Shown: piece after piece, positions 58,504 through 64,000 of the stretch | How the letters are laid out: each line of letters begins with the position of its first letter | Position numbering within the stretch: position 1 is the first letter of the stretch | Origin: Maribacter sp. | GTDB taxonomy: Bacteria; Bacteroidota; Bacteroidia; Flavobacteriales; Flavobacteriaceae | DNA length: 64,000 nucleotides | NCBI RefSeq assembly: GCF_039974175.1 | Contig: NZ_JBDWJN010000012.1 | Span: 60,724-124,723 of the forward strand | Reading direction: 5' to 3' | Translations under genes and position numbers: made by a program | The notes under the pieces: model-generated | Databases searched by the model: none | Seen by the model: the letters and a program-made list of their open reading frames with translations, nothing else | What the model was told of the DNA's origin: nothing

Positions 58504-59226
58504 TTAAACTATTTCTAGTCTTTCCTTCCAATCTAATTCTTCAGGTAATGGTTTATCACAAAACTCAAGATGAATTACCCTTCTGTTGCTATGACCCGAC
58601 GCTTTACTTGATGCATGAAAGGTAAGTGGCCTCATTAACATTATACCGCCTGATTTCACTTCACAGGTAAACTCTTTGCTATTTTGCGAGCGTTCTTCCG
58701 TCCTAACTACTCCGTTTAAATGTGATTCTGGGACAACCCTTAATGCTCCATTAGTTTCATCAGTATCATCTAGATGAATTCGTATTGTAATTGTTCTATC
58801 TAAATACTCTGTTGGAGGTTGAACTCCAATTTGGCCTCTCTTATTAGTCCAATTTTTGAACCCTTCTATTTGCTTTTGTTCAATTACATTGATTGTTAAG
58901 TCTTGATGATATGCTACGAACCAATTTGAACCTTCGAGCTTGTCAAAATAGATGGCTTTGCTTAAGAACAATTTACCTTCCTGATGAAGTTTAACTAATA
59001 GTCTTCTTAGATTTTTATTAAATAATACTCTTGCCAGTTCTGGAATCTCATTTACTAATTCCCTAATCGCAAAAAGGTCTTTCGACTTTGAAATCGAATT
59101 GCTATCCAATTCTTTTTCAGCTATCACTTTAGTTATTTCGAATATCTCAGACTCAGAATAGACATTAGGAATAATTGAGTAACCCTTATTATTCAGTTGT
59201 GATATATGTTCATTCACTTTCATCAT
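58504..59226 (-). CDS. Phytanoyl-CoA dioxygenase (PhyH) family Fe(II)/2-oxoglutarate dioxygenase
   Basis: HxD (AYHQDL) and distal His (LTFHAS) in a 240-aa PhyH-like layout. Confidence 0.72.
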   Translation of the reverse strand: MMKVNEHISQLNNKGYSIIPNVYSESEIFEITKVIAEKELDSNSISKSKDLFAIRELVNEIPELARVLFNKNLRRLLVKLHQEGKLFLSKAIYFDKLEGSNWFVAYHQDLTINVIEQKQIEGFKNWTNKRGQIGVQPPTEYLDRTITIRIHLDDTDETNGALRVVPESHLNGVVRTEERSQNSKEFTCEVKSGGIMLMRPLTFHASSKASGHSNRRVIHLEFCDKPLPEELDWKERLEIV

Positions 59227-59239
59227 TTATTTGAACTCT
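59226..59239 (-). repeat. Junction motif copy (TTTATTTGAACTCT; 13/14)
   Basis: Abuts the ATG at 59226, in the 27-nt gap after the stop at 59254. Confidence 0.75.
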
Positions 59240-59253
59240 AGTTTAGCATTCAA

Positions 59254-59715
59254 TTAATTATCCGTTTGCTGGAGCTGCCATTTTATCTCTTTATCATTTA
59301 GGTTTGGATATCTATCACTTACTTGAAAATCAACAGAGTCAAACATAAAATTGGCAATGTCGAAAATATGCTTGTCATTTGAATTTAATACAAATTTCAG
59401 CATCTCAGAAACCGACGCCGCGGCATTAAGTGCCAAAAATCCAATCAATTCGCCATAATCTTCGGTATCTGGAGTAACAGATTTTATCTTCAGAATTAAA
59501 TCGTTGATTTCTTTTTCTGAGAATTTGGACTTCTCATATTTTCGACAAACATCGATACCCTTTTCAAGTAATTCAGGGTTTCCAAAGTCATTTAGTTCGT
59601 AAAACTTTAAGTATTCGGGATAAATCCGTTCACAAATTTGAATGGCAAAATTCAGCTTCCTTTTGAAGGAAATCTTTTGGAGGTTATTTCGTAACTGAAT
59701 ATGATATTTAATCAA
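59254..59715 (-). CDS. YjaG/DUF416-like protein
   Basis: FAIQICERIYPEYLKFYELNDFG resembles my recollection of the E. coli YjaG N-terminal block (CERMYPNY...GFG); TTG start. Confidence 0.55.
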   Translation of the reverse strand: MIKYHIQLRNNLQKISFKRKLNFAIQICERIYPEYLKFYELNDFGNPELLEKGIDVCRKYEKSKFSEKEINDLILKIKSVTPDTEDYGELIGFLALNAAASVSEMLKFVLNSNDKHIFDIANFMFDSVDFQVSDRYPNLNDKEIKWQLQQTDN

Positions 59716-59726
59716 ATTTTCTATGA

Positions 59727-59740
59727 TTTATTTGAACTTT
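59727..59740 (-). repeat. Junction motif copy (TTTATTTGAACTTT; 14/14)
   Basis: Lies in the 32-nt gap between stop 59748 and TTG 59715. Confidence 0.8.
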
Positions 59741-59747
59741 GATTTCA

Positions 59748-60158
59748 TCATATCGGCTTAAAATGAACTTCGACATTTGGTATTCCAGGAGGGTCATTTT
59801 CACCAGATACAAGAATCAATATTAATTTGCTTTCATCAATTGATTTAATCCTAGATGTAATCTTATCTTTTATTGAAAGTTCGACATACTTATTTTCAGG
59901 AAAATATTTCCAAATTCCACTCTCATTATTGCCATCTTTTCGAATCAAGTCATATTTACCATCTGAAATAAATTTGAAATCAAAGTCGGCTGCTCCTGGC
60001 ATCTGTTTGATTTTCATTCCACCCATTAAGGCATATTCAATTTGCCACTGCTTACATAAAACTGTTTCTAACTGTGTTTTACTTAAACCAATATCTTGGG
60101 CGGATAGGCCATTACTCAGTCCCACTAAAAACCCAAAAATTAAGAGTATTCCTTTCAT
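59748..60158 (-). CDS. Lipocalin-like small exported protein
   Basis: Signal peptide MKGILLIFGFLVGLSNGLSAQ; start set to ATG 60158. Confidence 0.5.
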   Translation of the reverse strand: MKGILLIFGFLVGLSNGLSAQDIGLSKTQLETVLCKQWQIEYALMGGMKIKQMPGAADFDFKFISDGKYDLIRKDGNNESGIWKYFPENKYVELSIKDKITSRIKSIDESKLILILVSGENDPPGIPNVEVHFKPI

Positions 60159-60170
60159 ATATTTTAATCC

Positions 60171-60184
60171 TTTATTTGAACTTT
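60171..60184 (-). repeat. Junction motif copy (TTTATTTGAACTTT; 14/14)
   Basis: Lies in the 28-nt gap between stop 60187 and ATG 60158. Confidence 0.8.
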
Positions 60185-60186
60185 TA

Positions 60187-60909
60187 TTAACTAAACAGTC
60201 TAGCAAAAAAACCTTTCTTCTTTTTCTTAATCACCCAAATCAATTCATTTGGATGTCGTTTGGTTAAATTATTAGGTCCAAATTTCCCCCAAGCAAATCC
60301 ATCTTTATTCTTTGCTTTTCTCATATCCGCAACTACCCACTCGTTTCCTTCAAATTCGCTCAGAAACTTATTAAATTCTTTGTTGCTAAGTACAAAGGCC
60401 TCTTTTTCAAAAATAGAACCGCCGCTTGACCAAATGTCAAATACAACTTTGTCATGTATTTCGTTCAGATAGTTTTCTGATGGAGATTCATAAAACTCAA
60501 TCAAACCGTTTAGAAACTCATTTAGAGTATCTGAATACTTTACAAAAACAGCTGGGTCATGACATGCATAGTATACTTGCCCAAGGGTTCCGTCGTCCAA
60601 AATATCTAGTATCCAAAAATTACCAAATCCATCATGGCCAAGAGTTATAGAGTTTGGAGATAATTCTAAAAATCCGAATTGACCTATTGATGAAAAATCA
60701 ACTTGCTCCAAACCGTATCCTTCCCATCCTCTTGTCTCCTTCAATATCTCGACAAGCTCGATATCAATAATGTTGCTTGGAAATAAGTTTGAAAGGTCTT
60801 TAACTTCAGAATCAGTTAATCCTGCTTGGAAGTCGAGATCGTATTCTTCCCCATCTTCATCCGTAAAGGTTGCTCCTCTTAACTTTTTAATGATTTCGAG
60901 ATTTTTCAT
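60187..60909 (-). CDS. SMI1/KNR4 (SUKH-1) family protein
   Basis: GHDGFGNFWILDILDDGTLGQVYYACHD core typical of SUKH; ATGA overlap with the upstream gene. Confidence 0.7.
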   Translation of the reverse strand: MKNLEIIKKLRGATFTDEDGEEYDLDFQAGLTDSEVKDLSNLFPSNIIDIELVEILKETRGWEGYGLEQVDFSSIGQFGFLELSPNSITLGHDGFGNFWILDILDDGTLGQVYYACHDPAVFVKYSDTLNEFLNGLIEFYESPSENYLNEIHDKVVFDIWSSGGSIFEKEAFVLSNKEFNKFLSEFEGNEWVVADMRKAKNKDGFAWGKFGPNNLTKRHPNELIWVIKKKKKGFFARLFS

Positions 60910-63404
60910 CTATTAATTTGGCTAATTATTGTCCTATCCTTGATTTTCGTGTCTTCAGCTAACATGAATGCCTTACTTAAAATGACCGATAGGGTAGTAT
61001 CTCCTTCAAAAGGCAAGAATACATTATCCTTACTCTTAGATCTATCAGCTACAATACACAAATATTGATCATTTGGCTTCATTAAGATATTACCACTACC
61101 CATATGAATTTTGTAAATTCTTAAACTCCCCTTTACAACAAGAAAATTGCCTTCGAAAGAGCATTGACCAGCAATCTTTAGTTTGGGAATAATATTTTCA
61201 AGAAGTTTCTTTCTCTCCTTTCCACTAATGGCAAGATCTCCAAATGAAAAGTCAGACCAATATCCATGAAATCTTTCTTCTCCGCCATCTCTCCAGTTCG
61301 GGTCCGCACCAATGCTTGTAACACCAACAAAGAGGTCAACATCTCTCATTGCTTCTGAAAAAACAATAGCTGGAACATTAGCCATATCGACTTGACTTTC
61401 TTCATCATAAAACCGTACTTGATCCGTTTGCAAATAATTGAAAATAGCTGATTCATTTGCAGATCCTTCAACACCATCTGCCCAAAATTCTATGCTATAT
61501 TTCCAAGCAGGTATTTTTAAAGTAGGCGTATTATGAGAGTCCCACTGACCTTGAAGGGTATACCCCCATCCACGCTCTCTACAAAGGGCGATAAAAATAT
61601 GCTGTCTTAAAATATGTGCAGCAAACCGATTAGAATAACTGTTTGTGTTTTTCTCTGCATCGGTGACAATATATAGTTCACGGTGTGCTTGCTTGAATGG
61701 CTGTTTTACTTCATTCGTCTCTAACCAGTTCCGCCAAGATTGGACTTCTTCTACTGAAGCGTTTACCGGGTGCCATAATTCAACTTTGGCGTTTTCAAAA
61801 CTTTCTAAGATTACTCCATTATAGCTTACAAACTCATTGCTTCTAAAAATAGCGCTGGTAGTCTTGTTGTCTATCGTAAAACTCCAAATCAGTTTCGTGC
61901 CAAAAAAACCTAAAAGCTTATTTTCTATATAGAGTTTTTTCCATTGGTCATACTCCCATTCTCGTTTGCCTAAAAAAATCTTTTCTATTCTGCTTTTTTG
62001 GGCAGTTAGATTTGATTGAATGTCTTTTATTTTTTTCTTAAAATCTTTTAATTCCTCAGGATAATTATCCTTTACATATTTGGGAATCGACTTAATTTGT
62101 TTGCCTTTATCGTTTTGCCATAGTAAACTAAAAGTAGAGCTATTTACAATTACTCCTAACCCTATGTAATTACCAAAATTTTGAATTAATTGGTAGTTGG
62201 CATCTAAGCCAAAATCTTGAACGGCAAGTTCTTCAATCTCATCCATGGTTTTTCCCTCGGCTTTGGCGACTCTGCCGATAGCCTTACCAATGGTGTTTCT
62301 TACCGATGGGTATTTGATTTTCATTCTAAATTTTGTGAGTCGAGAGATGCCATCTTGGTACGGTAGTTTTGAAAAAGCATAAATACAACCATTACCAAGT
62401 TTTACACTGACTGCACCGTGACCTGATAGTTTTTTAAAGCTCCATAATCCTAAATCTTCAATAGATTGATTTAAATCTTTATCATTAATAAGAGCTCCAC
62501 TCCAAACTGCCGCCCTTAATAATTGAAGGTTCTCATCAGAAACAAAACGAAATTCGTAGCTCCTATCCTTATGTATCTTTTGGAATATGCCGATGATTGC
62601 TTCAATCCATAAAATGAAATTTTTTGACAATTCTTTCTTACCAATATTTTCTATTTGTGTATCAGAAGACTTTAGCCAAGAAATGGTAGGTGTACTTTTT
62701 TCGCTTCCCTTTGCGAAATGCTTTAAAAGGTTTTGAAAGAGAAGTTGCTTATCTGTTTTAAAAGAACGAATCGTGCTATCAATACTTTTTCCTAATTTAT
62801 CTCTTGTATCAATAGAGAATTCGGTAGGTTTTTGTCTAATGCTCTTTATGCGCTTAAGAATTTTTTGTTCATCAGAATAGATATAGTTCCGTTTTGAAAT
62901 TGCGCTTTTAATTACAACTAAACATTGATTTAAGGTAGAATTAAGTCCTTCTTCTTGAGACCTTTGTTGTATTTTACTAAGAATTGGATTAAACGGCCAT
63001 TCAGAAATATGAAAATAACCTCTTTTCTTAGAGACAAATCCCTTAACAAGATCTAGCAACTCTTCATCGCTAAAACTTAATTCAGAAGACCTTACCGACA
63101 GACTCAATGTTCTAGACCATATATCTTTTACCCAATAGGAAGAATTTGCCCATGGCCCGCCGTCATTTGCAAGTCCGTTTTTATTATTGATTAATGCAAA
63201 AATGAATTCTTTTTTAAACTCTTCTGGTTTGTTTTTAAGTTCCTTGTACTTAGTTACCCTAGTTAGTTTTACACTATAGTCCTCCCTCTTTTCAAGGGCC
63301 TCTTCGGTAAAATCTTTTAAAAATTTACGTACGTCATCACTCACATGGAAAGTAGCCTTTTGCTCTTTTTCATACCCAAATAATTTTTTAAAAGCATCTA
63401 ACAT
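60906..63404 (-). CDS. DUF4132-domain protein (MolR/YehI-like), 832 aa
   Basis: C-terminal third carries the KQPFKQAHRELY... block I associate with DUF4132; N-terminal about 500 aa unassigned. Confidence 0.65.
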   Translation of the reverse strand: MLDAFKKLFGYEKEQKATFHVSDDVRKFLKDFTEEALEKREDYSVKLTRVTKYKELKNKPEEFKKEFIFALINNKNGLANDGGPWANSSYWVKDIWSRTLSLSVRSSELSFSDEELLDLVKGFVSKKRGYFHISEWPFNPILSKIQQRSQEEGLNSTLNQCLVVIKSAISKRNYIYSDEQKILKRIKSIRQKPTEFSIDTRDKLGKSIDSTIRSFKTDKQLLFQNLLKHFAKGSEKSTPTISWLKSSDTQIENIGKKELSKNFILWIEAIIGIFQKIHKDRSYEFRFVSDENLQLLRAAVWSGALINDKDLNQSIEDLGLWSFKKLSGHGAVSVKLGNGCIYAFSKLPYQDGISRLTKFRMKIKYPSVRNTIGKAIGRVAKAEGKTMDEIEELAVQDFGLDANYQLIQNFGNYIGLGVIVNSSTFSLLWQNDKGKQIKSIPKYVKDNYPEELKDFKKKIKDIQSNLTAQKSRIEKIFLGKREWEYDQWKKLYIENKLLGFFGTKLIWSFTIDNKTTSAIFRSNEFVSYNGVILESFENAKVELWHPVNASVEEVQSWRNWLETNEVKQPFKQAHRELYIVTDAEKNTNSYSNRFAAHILRQHIFIALCRERGWGYTLQGQWDSHNTPTLKIPAWKYSIEFWADGVEGSANESAIFNYLQTDQVRFYDEESQVDMANVPAIVFSEAMRDVDLFVGVTSIGADPNWRDGGEERFHGYWSDFSFGDLAISGKERKKLLENIIPKLKIAGQCSFEGNFLVVKGSLRIYKIHMGSGNILMKPNDQYLCIVADRSKSKDNVFLPFEGDTTLSVILSKAFMLAEDTKIKDRTIISQINR

Positions 63405-63407
63405 AGA

Positions 63408-63800
63408 CTATCCTCCAACTAATTGCGTAAGTTTTACAAAACTAATCGCTGTTGTTTTACCTACTAAAACCTCTTGTTCTAAGTCTTCAGCTTGTTGATT
63501 ATTTATAAGTATGAAATACCCATTCTTTTGAAAGGCATCTAAAGCAGTCCAGATTTGTTTTTCTACATCGATTTTCTTTTCCCTTCTCTTTAGCCGAAAC
63601 CCATTTAAAGTCTTCTCCGCTTCAGAAGGTTGAATAAGTCCTTTAAAATATTCAGGTAGTTTTTCATTGTAGGATTTCACCTCAGAAGCTACACGGGCGG
63701 CAATAAGGTCTTTGACCGTGGTACGTTCGTTTTGAACTGCAATCTCTATTTCATTTAAAATATCTCCTGAGAAGGTGGCATCTTTTATAGTAATAACCAT
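63408..63800 (-). CDS. ThiS/MoaD-like beta-grasp candidate ending in Gly-Gly (130 aa, with an internal insert)
   Basis: N-terminal VITIKD...ERTTVKDLIAARV and C-terminal ILINNQQ...VGKTTAISFVKLTQLVGG-stop mimic the ThiS/MoaD pattern; 3-nt gap to the DUF4132 gene. Confidence 0.5.
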   Translation of the reverse strand: MVITIKDATFSGDILNEIEIAVQNERTTVKDLIAARVASEVKSYNEKLPEYFKGLIQPSEAEKTLNGFRLKRREKKIDVEKQIWTALDAFQKNGYFILINNQQAEDLEQEVLVGKTTAISFVKLTQLVGG

Positions 63801-63918
63801 ATCATATTTTTCTTGAATGTATTCATTTTTTGACTTTCTACGATAATTTCTCGATGAGATTAATTTAAATCCTAGTAATTGACAGCTTTTACCAATTTCT
63901 TTGTAATTCGTTTTAAAA

Positions 63919-64000
63919 TCAAAACTTCAAACTCCCAACCTCAAGTTCATCTTCTTCTTTGTCAAGTCTTACAACCGTTATTTTACGTTCTTCATTTGGC
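63919..64000 (-). CDS. 3' end of a further minus-strand ORF truncated by the window edge
   Basis: Open frame ...PNEERKITVVRLDKEEDELEVGSLKF-stop (TGA at 63919-63921); only 26 codons are visible. Confidence 0.3.
   Translation of the reverse strand, partial: PNEERKITVVRLDKEEDELEVGSLKF

Follow-up and report, generated by a model that had tools for sequence, protein, structure and literature searches.

A widespread family of predicted bacterial ubiquitin-like proteins with a free Gly-Gly terminus is encoded beside DUF4132-DUF7737 proteins

Introduction

The ubiquitin-like proteins of prokaryotes have been surveyed several times, and recent work showed that a number of them drive antiviral conjugation. 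Among the closest described systems are those of ThiS, MoaD, Urm1, SAMP and TtuB, small β-grasp proteins with a free Gly-Gly at the C terminus. Their activating enzymes (E1) belong to the ThiF/MoeB clade, the known substrates of which are the C-terminal Gly-Gly carboxylates of β-grasp proteins. A single E1 can act in trans on several carriers, as do TtuC in Thermus, MoeZ in mycobacteria and UbaA, the archaeal SAMP-activating enzyme, in Haloferax. The carriers work with dedicated partners, and the MoaD tail, for example, sits in MoaE. Here we describe a 130-residue protein encoded on a 64,000-nucleotide stretch of a Maribacter sp. genome (hereafter the window, meaning the whole stretch that was analyzed). 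Its gene stands directly before one for a protein with two domains of unknown function, DUF4132 and DUF7737. A preliminary description of the window had read the small protein as a ubiquitin-like, ThiS/MoaD-type candidate.

We conclude that the window protein belongs to a large, unannotated group of predicted bacterial ubiquitin-like β-grasp proteins tied to DUF4132-DUF7737 proteins and, with a probability of roughly 0.6, that its tail is activated by an E1. Like the ThiS/MoaD-type carriers, its family consists of small predicted β-grasp proteins with a free Gly-Gly, and, as in their systems, which do not depend on a conjugating enzyme (E2), the module contains neither an E2 nor a JAB protein. 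The window protein differs from these carriers in its length of 130 residues, in a conserved insert of about 45 residues and in its partner, which in those systems is MoaE, ThiG, CysM or TtuA and here is an obligate DUF4132-DUF7737 protein. The Bil, Bub/6E and Cap2-Cap3 systems, the last from the cyclic oligonucleotide-based antiphage signaling system (CBASS), likewise combine a ubiquitin-like protein ending in Gly-Gly with an E1-type enzyme in variable neighborhoods. Unlike these, the module has no E2 domain, no JAB protein or other deubiquitinase (DUB) and no typical effector, and the E1 is missing from most loci. Compared with known pairs of ubiquitin-like protein and E1, we rate the obligate partner, the insert and the E1 subgroup as new. 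An arrangement of this kind is not listed in a survey of ubiquitin-like operons of prokaryotes from 2006 (PMC1779556), and in the full-text literature outside subscription-only sources we found no paper linking DUF4132 or DUF7737 to a ubiquitin-like protein.

Results and discussion

The terminal Gly-Gly is conserved at the protein level

The window protein begins with MVITIKDATFSGDILNEIEIAVQNERTTVKDLIAARV / MVITIKDATFSG and ends with ISFVKLTQLVGG, directly followed by a stop codon. Its last residues are F-V-K-L-T-Q-L-V-G-G with a free end; the protein is thus translated with the Gly-Gly already exposed, and no processing is required. A hidden Markov model (HMM) search of 50%-identity cluster representatives, made without selection for the tail, returned 1,716 proteins at E ≤ 1e-3 (760 at E ≤ 1e-10). 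Among the 150 best-scoring of these, 143 have Gly-Gly as their last two residues, with the tail consensus F-x-K-L-x-P-L-V-G-G. Three of the seven others diverge well before the end in a frameshift-like manner. One more, P0261, is not a member of the family: it is a repetitive protein of 6,458 residues whose C-terminal 160 residues end in RNQNF, it gives 26 separate matches to profile positions 69-116, and its similarity to the profile is probably repetitive or compositional.

The closest homologs show the same ending (118 of 120), and in a 132-sequence alignment with a mean identity of 41%, only five columns are invariant, namely D7, A86, F121 and the two terminal glycines, G129 and G130. Furthermore, Gly-Gly is followed by a stop codon without any extension in all 87 fetched loci that have a complete 3′ end. 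These loci were retrieved by a peptide pattern containing "LVG," and their count is therefore partly biased, whereas the 143 of 150 is unbiased. Terminal Gly-Gly occurs at a frequency far beyond chance. The free terminus that the preliminary description had noticed in a single protein is a trait of a diverse family.

That description had also cautioned that the two glycine codons might be preserved because they act as a Shine-Dalgarno-like element of the downstream gene, with the terminal Gly-Gly incidental. The window does have the arrangement on which this caveat was built: at the 3′ end of the small gene the coding (minus) strand reads GTT GGA GGA TAG TCT ATG, and the DUF4132 start codon (63402-63404) begins 6 nucleotides past the second glycine codon. 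Across 79 loci, however, 14 different pairs of glycine codons are used, and GGAGGA accounts for just 16 of them. The other pairs include GGAGGT (10 loci), GGGGGA, GGCGGA and GGTGGA (8 each), GGCGGC (5), GGTGGT and GGGGGG. All three stop codons follow the glycines, and the spacing to the next ATG ranges from overlap with the stop codon to more than 20 nucleotides. The Gly-Gly-stop is also kept where no gene lies directly 3′ or where the DUF4132 gene lies upstream (loci L037, L052, L058, L084 and L086). In other words, when orthologs are aligned, Gly-Gly stays last while its codons vary. This synonymous variation, together with the variable spacing, places the constraint on the glycines and not on the GGAGG nucleotides. 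Bacteroidota, moreover, make little use of Shine-Dalgarno pairing in general. The Shine-Dalgarno explanation is refuted, and we leave it practically no probability.

A large family of proteins annotated as hypothetical

In a word-indexed search, the window protein had homologs in 503 clusters at 90% identity. Of these, the best 120 are 65-95% identical to it and are from Maribacter, Zobellia, Mariniflexile, Kordia, Tenacibaculum and others. With a profile built from high-GC members, the number of 90%-identity clusters recovered was at least 6,544, with proteins from Planctomycetes, Phycisphaerae and Chthonomonadaceae among them, and the range was extended to Nonomuraea and Novosphingobium by tblastn and to Deinococcus by hhalign. 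The phyla represented are Bacteroidota, Actinomycetota, Planctomycetota, Pseudomonadota, Deinococcota and Armatimonadota. All named members are annotated as "hypothetical protein." The window protein has no match to a Pfam or NCBIfam model or to a PDB sequence, profile searches of PDB sequences with the family gave nothing significant, and the phage collection holds no homolog. If the ubiquitin-like assignment is right, this is one of the larger prokaryotic families of its kind, and one that lacks a Pfam or NCBIfam model.

The closest named relative, at 90% identity, is encoded in Zobellia uliginosa (L003, 10001-10390) and is annotated as a 117-residue protein ending in SKTT. In tblastn, its DNA aligns across residues 1-130 up to ...LVGG-stop, and the called open reading frame (ORF) ends 12 codons earlier, which implies a premature stop or a sequencing error. 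The gene may be a pseudogene.

The predicted fold is β-grasp with a conserved insert

An AlphaFold2 model of the small protein was computed from a 40-sequence alignment, with a mean predicted local distance difference test score (pLDDT) of 71 and a predicted template modeling score (pTM) of 0.65. Its strands cover residues 2-9, 14-21, 26-28 (short), 95-99, 110-112 and 119-123, after which the tail is free; helices cover 29-46 and 79-91, with a short one at 60-64 inside a poorly defined region, 47-78. The order of elements is therefore strand-strand-helix, insert with helix, and three strands, with a loop between the final two. We compared this model with the PDB using Foldseek and found that all 50 matches listed are β-grasp proteins. 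Ubiquitin-like and sulfur-carrier proteins account for 47 of these; the remainder consists of two matches to Staphylococcus aureus EapH1 and one to a chain of the FDX2-bound iron-sulfur cluster assembly (ISC) complex 8rmc. Among the best matches are MOCS2A (5mpo), with a probability of 0.95-0.96 and a target-normalized template modeling score of 0.59-0.64, ISG15, Urm1 (1wgk), ubiquitin, SUMO, MoaD (1jwb, 1fm0), SAMP1 and bacterial multi-ubiquitin proteins. The model thus agrees, with moderate confidence, with the β-grasp fold anticipated in the preliminary description. The likeness to ThiS and MoaD that was drawn there stands for the fold and for the Gly-Gly end; it does not extend to membership by sequence, since the ThiS family (PF02597) stays below threshold, with sub-threshold Pfam matches in only 4 of 132 family members and a best E value of 0.063.

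The roughly 45 inserted residues that had been noticed earlier are recovered in the model, which has the 29-46 helix, the low-confidence stretch and the 79-91 helix between strands 2 and 3. This insert carries the best-conserved motif of the family, Y44 N45 .. P49 E50 Y51 F52 x G54 L55 x x P58 .. E62 K63 T64 L65 N66 G67, or YN..PEYFxGLxQP..AEKTLNG as a string, in which N45, F52, G54, L55, P58, E62 and G67 are invariant or nearly so. Conservation of this degree suggests that the insert is a binding surface.

The small gene accompanies the DUF4132-DUF7737 gene

As the preliminary description had stated, the small gene of the window lies directly upstream of the DUF4132 gene. Both genes are on the minus strand, which that description did not give, and Pfam confirms the identity of the partner. 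To place this pair in context, we collected 82 genome loci, all from Bacteroidota except two contigs of metagenome-assembled genomes (MAGs) with other labels. A DUF4132-DUF7737 gene adjoins the small gene in 79 of the 81 loci that can be evaluated, 78 times downstream and once upstream (L058). The small gene is an orphan in two Saprospiraceae MAG loci (L037 and L052), and the 82nd locus is cut by a contig end. The order is reversed with adjacency kept in L058, L084 and L086. The same pair occurs in high-GC soil metagenome loci wherever at least about 1.5 kb of downstream sequence is present, as well as in other metagenomic contigs, Nonomuraea, Novosphingobium, Phycisphaerae and Deinococcus. 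In all cases examined, the ubiquitin-like protein accompanies the DUF4132+DUF7737 architecture. The core unit is these two genes, to which a MoeB/ThiF-type E1 is an accessory third.

The partners fall into two classes: class A, which includes that of the window, comprises proteins of about 830 residues that are 60-66% identical to the window partner, and class B comprises proteins of about 860-870 residues with 33-37% identity. The small protein is far better conserved than its partner and does not track these classes. In Z. uliginosa, for instance, the small protein is 90% identical to that of the window, but the partner belongs to the other class and is only 35% identical. Mariniflexile sp. 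HMF6888 has two complete modules (L011 and L055), one per class, with small proteins 74% and 61% identical to the window protein, and Rapidithrix thailandica has five tandem DUF4132-DUF7737 paralogs with one small gene between the second and the third (L036, 3264-17838).

A 969-residue protein, P0187 (L084, 731-3640), appears to fuse DUF4132 to the ubiquitin-like protein. We rejected it as Rosetta-stone evidence and made no use of it: the contig has 2x coverage, tblastn places the DUF7737 part in another frame, Pfam misses DUF7737 in P0187, and the fusion is probably a read-through or frameshift artifact of gene calling. A third conserved gene was sought in the high-GC loci by clustering, but nothing emerged apart from ORFs in shadow frames of the core pair.

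In its AlphaFold2 model (pLDDT 79), the window partner consists of all-helical repeats over residues 1-400 followed by mixed α/β domains. Across 69 homologs, the repeat region is poorly conserved (about 20-30% identity per block), and the C-terminal module, residues 540-832, is 50-80% identical. The 126 positions that are at least 95% identical in this alignment include many polar residues: H545, R558, K571, R575, E576, S591, N592, R593, H597 and H602; D661, R664, E684, R687, D688, D690, D701 and D706; and K765, H767, S770, N772, N778, D779, C783, E800 and D802. The DUF7737 motif Y(K/R)IHxGSxNIxMEPNxQYLC(I/V)V, cysteine included, is kept in this Bacteroidota alignment and in 32 of 32 sequences from 30 loci, among which are Actinomycetota, Planctomycetota and many unassigned metagenome contigs. 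To judge from its conservation, the motif region looks like an active or ligand-binding site. A fold search with the whole partner returned only ARM/HEAT-like repeat matches to its N-terminal half in the PDB and noise in BFVD, and a profile search of PDB sequences with the DUF4132 C-terminal module gave nothing significant. DUF7737 was also considered as a divergent E2, given its invariant cysteine, its suggestive order of elements (helix, strands, helices) and its "EPN...C" motif; the idea was dropped because hhalign gave a probability below 1% against four E2 sequences.

A ThiF-family E1 is the third gene of some operons

Clustering of neighboring genes revealed one further conserved neighbor, a ThiF-family protein of about 235 residues found in 18 of the 82 loci, from Kordia, Pedobacter and other Sphingobacteriaceae, Chitinophagaceae, Saprospiraceae, Flavobacterium and others. 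The ThiF match covers the full length (Pfam E values of 1e-58 to 1e-68). In 17 loci the start of the E1 gene overlaps the DUF4132 stop codon or lies within a few nucleotides of it, and in L058 it comes directly after the small gene. A gap or a strand switch follows in the contexts listed, which marks the E1 as the last gene of a three-gene operon. All 18 loci are class-B modules.

The best NCBIfam matches of these E1s are MoeB, ThiF and UbaA (E values of about 1e-50 to 1e-60). With 110-205 bits, all scores fall below the curated cut-offs of 159-647 bits, which sets the linked E1s apart as a distinct subgroup. In comparison with Escherichia coli MoeB and ThiF, the GxGGLG loop (G38-G43), R73, the DCxDN motif (D127-C-x-D130) and C187 are invariant. 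These 18 operons thus carry an E1 of the MoeB/ThiF/UbaA clade with its adenylation residues and cysteine intact and without any rhodanese domain. The E1 also matches the PADLOC "E1-E2" models through its adenylation domain. Concerning the adenylating or JAB-type neighbors that one would look for around such a protein, the search was thus partly successful: the E1 occurs in related loci, the window itself has none, and no JAB gene was found among the conserved neighbors. For the family as a whole, the predicted fold, the tail and the adenylating partner in a subset of loci all support the ubiquitin-like reading given earlier.

A DNA damage-induced operon in Deinococcus and a sister branch

Using the conserved partner module in tblastn, we found a homologous pair on chromosome II of Deinococcus radiodurans. 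DR_A0165, a 134-residue protein encoded next to trxC, ends in ...LRLTALAGG-stop, 3 nucleotides before DR_A0166, which encodes a 1,626-residue protein with DUF5724, DUF4132 and DUF7737. The hhalign probability of DR_A0165 against the family profile is 98.4% (E 7e-15), at 25% identity, and Deinococcus ficus and Deinococcus psychrotolerans have the same pair with the same tail. The palindrome GGTTATGCTATTTACATAACC upstream of DR_A0165 is a published DdrO site (PMC8533742). According to the same study, the drA0165-drA0166 operon is strongly derepressed upon DdrO depletion, the DRA0166 protein increases after mitomycin C in an IrrE-dependent manner, and moeA and moeB are not co-regulated with the operon; DR_A0165 is not recognized there as ubiquitin-like (PMC8533742).

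The Deinococcus operon and the window module share a homologous small protein with Gly-Gly-stop, the DUF4132+DUF7737 end of the partner, the gene order and the tight spacing. They differ in the low identity of the small proteins, in the N-terminal DUF5724 that replaces the 400-residue repeat region of the window partner, and in the DdrO/IrrE regulation, which Bacteroidota lack. A published but unexplained operon can therefore be re-read as a ubiquitin-like protein and its partner, in an organism in which genetics and proteomics are straightforward. In D. radiodurans (L177, 6647-10753), the 5 kb around drA0165-drA0166 contain genes for a molybdate ATP-binding cassette (ABC) transporter (modA and a permease), thiD and a thiazole synthase gene. 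These neighbors are missing in D. ficus and D. psychrotolerans, and their proximity, curious in view of the MolR label discussed below, is probably a coincidence.

A distant sister branch in Bacteroidota has giant DUF5724-DUF4132-DUF7737 genes, found in Bacteroides finegoldii, Chondrinema and Fulvitalea, and each is preceded by a gene for a homologous small protein (hhalign probability of 96-98% for B. finegoldii and Chondrinema and 62% for Fulvitalea).

How the tail may be used

Activation of the tail by an E1 is the most likely mechanism and, by analogy with the known carriers, a probable one. We propose that the small gene is co-transcribed with, and functionally tied to, the DUF4132-DUF7737 gene and that its product would rely on the exposed ...P/Q-L-V-G-G carboxy terminus. 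A MoeB/ThiF-type E1 would adenylate this terminus; it is encoded as a translationally coupled third gene in about one-fifth of the Bacteroidota loci and elsewhere, as in the window, would presumably be supplied in trans. The activated tail (an acyl-adenylate, then a thiocarboxylate or thioester) might then react at the strongly conserved C-terminal module of the partner or be passed on by it, whereas sensing or the binding of targets would fall to the N-terminal region of helical repeats or DUF5724. For DUF4132-DUF7737 proteins, the candidate tail, the occasional dedicated E1 and the invariant cysteine motif together offer a first concrete handle. In its boldest form, which we consider a long shot, the proposal would describe a minimal transfer system without an E2. 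Once activated by a ThiF-type E1 without Zn, encoded either in cis or in trans, the Gly-Gly would be passed to the invariant cysteine of YKIHxGSxNILMEPNxQYLCIV, DUF7737 would act like an E2 or E3 without detectable relation to the UBC fold, and attachment to the partner itself or to targets chosen by the repeat or DUF5724 region would form a damage- or infection-induced switch in thousands of bacteria.

Several observations weigh against a ubiquitin-like protein activated in this way. Confidence in the structural match is moderate (pLDDT 71), and the Foldseek E values of 0.06-0.25 are weak, which makes the fold support consistent and moderate but not proof. No ThiS or ubiquitin HMM scores above threshold with the family, and the window protein has no ThiS match even at E ≤ 1. 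An Acetobacter plasmid carries a DUF4132-DUF7737 gene without such a neighbor; the gene upstream is unrelated. Neither of the Zn-binding CxxC pairs known from MoeB and ThiF is present in the linked E1s. There is no E1 within the 64-kb window, nor adjacent to the module in any class-A locus, in 80 high-GC metagenomic loci or in the Planctomycetota contexts; the E1 is therefore present in cis in a minority only. Clustering likewise found no E2, JAB/DUB, rhodanese or cysteine desulfurase gene conserved in the neighborhoods. Finally, the small proteins of the sister branch end in ...LAMLSGRLW, ...LTFLAGSIW and ...LTFLAGSTY instead of Gly-Gly-stop, meaning that they are either processed or have a tail that only docks.

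Some of these points would suit a non-covalent subunit. In this reading, the small protein would serve the partner as a stoichiometric adaptor or as a regulatory subunit; its tail would dock in the partner's C-terminal module without ever being adenylated or passed on, and the E1 would have another or an accessory role. About 80% of the Bacteroidota loci, and every high-GC or Planctomycetota locus sampled, consist of two genes without an E1. Genes for an E2, a JAB protein or a sulfurtransferase are not conserved in the vicinity, and the LAGSIW, LSGRLW and LAGSTY endings of the sister branch fit a docking peptide better than an adenylation substrate. The insert, conserved yet of low model confidence on its own, resembles a partner-binding element. 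Mere docking, however, does not account for an E1 that is translationally coupled in 18 loci of several families with its adenylation residues and cysteine kept, in a clade with known substrates that are C-terminal Gly-Gly carboxylates. Moreover, an unextended terminal Gly-Gly in more than 95% of a multi-phylum family is stricter than docking needs. We regard a purely non-covalent subunit as unlikely, although it is the main competitor of E1-dependent activation.

The molybdenum label and a metabolic sulfur carrier

DUF4132 proteins carry the old label MolR (molybdate metabolism regulator), from which the preliminary description had drawn a hint of a molybdenum connection. This hint was not borne out. 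YehI of E. coli has a C-terminal DUF4132 and sits with WGR, MoxR-AAA, VWA and SWIM genes; it lacks DUF7737, and no such small protein is encoded beside it. The E. coli molR pseudogene is also without DUF7737 and without the small protein. YehK, encoded by the small gene after yehI, was considered as a homolog and rejected (hhalign probability 0.4%). Because YehI has no DUF7737 and YehK is unrelated, the MolR label says nothing about the DUF4132-DUF7737 module, the partner of which shares only DUF4132 with E. coli YehI/YehH. A misleading "molybdate regulator" association is thereby removed for this architecture.

A related possibility is a metabolic sulfur carrier that delivers a thiocarboxylate in the manner of MoaD or ThiS for a cofactor or thio-metabolite, with the DUF4132-DUF7737 protein as a "synthase" (compare the MolR label). 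A carrier with a large partner, an E1 only sometimes nearby and no E2 or JAB is indeed the layout of moaD-moaE, thiS-thiG and cysO-cysM, as surveyed by Iyer et al. 2006 (PMC1779556) and as is well established. The best fold matches include MOCS2A, MoaD and Urm1, the linked E1 most resembles MoeB and ThiF, and four of the 132 family members have the sub-threshold ThiS matches described above. Around the module, however, there is no conserved gene of molybdopterin, thiamin or cysteine metabolism and none for a sulfurtransferase; the only conserved neighbors are DUF4132-DUF7737 and, in some loci, the E1, and MoaE, ThiG, CysM and TtuA are not among them. Fast-evolving repeats and multiple paralogs (five in R. 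thailandica, two modules in Mariniflexile) are untypical of a biosynthetic enzyme, and the E. coli DUF4132 genes lack both DUF7737 and the small protein. The Deinococcus operon, moreover, is induced by DNA damage without co-regulation of moeA and moeB (PMC8533742). Overall, a metabolic sulfur carrier appears very improbable.

Taken together, the variable repeat region, the expansion of paralogs, neighbors of the SUKH, SUFU and DUF4265 types, the WYL-WCX regulator described below and the DNA-damage induction in Deinococcus point to a role in stress or conflict over one in metabolism or cofactor biosynthesis.

The window locus and neighboring genes

The features of the window and the small genes of the sister branch are collected in Table 1.

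Table 1. Coordinates of the module in the window and of small genes upstream of giant DUF5724-DUF4132-DUF7737 genes in other loci (locus handle given where the position is not in the window)
Feature	Position	Strand	Remarks
Small-protein gene	63408..63800	-	130 residues, predicted ubiquitin-like (β-grasp); basis: ORF, translation, family, AlphaFold2 and Foldseek
Family-specific insert	63519..63674 (about residues 43-94)	-	between first helix and strand 3; contains second helix; low pLDDT at 47-78
Gly129 and Gly130 codons GGA GGA with TAG stop	63408..63416	-	glycine codons 63411-63416, stop 63408-63410
Non-coding region upstream of the operon	63801..63925	-	near-identical to the Z. uliginosa locus (DNA alignment)
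Partner gene	60906..63404	-	832 residues; Pfam DUF4132 and DUF7737
DUF4132 domain (PF13569)	61566..62105 (residues 434-613)	-	Pfam E 6e-46
DUF7737 domain (PF24879)	60915..61220 (residues 729-830)	-	Pfam E 4e-41
DUF7737 motif YKIHxGSxNILMxPNDQYLCIV with invariant Cys783	61050-61115 (residues 764-785)	-	near-invariant
Sister-family small gene	L178 1236-1655		upstream of giant gene
Sister-family small gene	L180 1187-1612		upstream of giant gene
Sister-family small gene	L183 2949-3422	-	upstream of giant gene

Within the non-coding region upstream of the operon, about 45 nucleotides remain of the 3′ end of a gene for a WYL-WCX regulator, a gene that is intact in Z. uliginosa. Homology to the Z. 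uliginosa locus ends at about 63925, and past this point a different minus-strand ORF ends (...DELEVGSLKF-stop). From the alignment, the regulator gene seems to have been replaced in the window, at what looks like a rearrangement breakpoint. Intact genes with WYL and WCX domains (Pfam) precede the small gene in L003, L009 and L056. Since the regulator is directly upstream in only these three loci, we rejected it as a general upstream partner.

On the other side of the module, a SUKH-1/SMI1_KNR4 gene (60187-60909, minus strand) overlaps the DUF4132 stop codon by 4 nucleotides. It is followed on the same strand (58504-60909) by a lipoprotein-like ORF of 152 residues, a DUF416 gene and a PhyH dioxygenase gene. 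PADLOC models gave no match for the small protein, the DUF4132 protein or the SUKH gene. Small genes of the SUKH, SUFU, DUF4265 and DUF7668 types lie near the module in L001 and L087/L088, and neighbors of the SUKH/SUFU type are not conserved in close relatives such as L002. One metagenomic contig carries a LexA gene on the downstream side, about 3.5 kb from the module (L176, 14553-15164).

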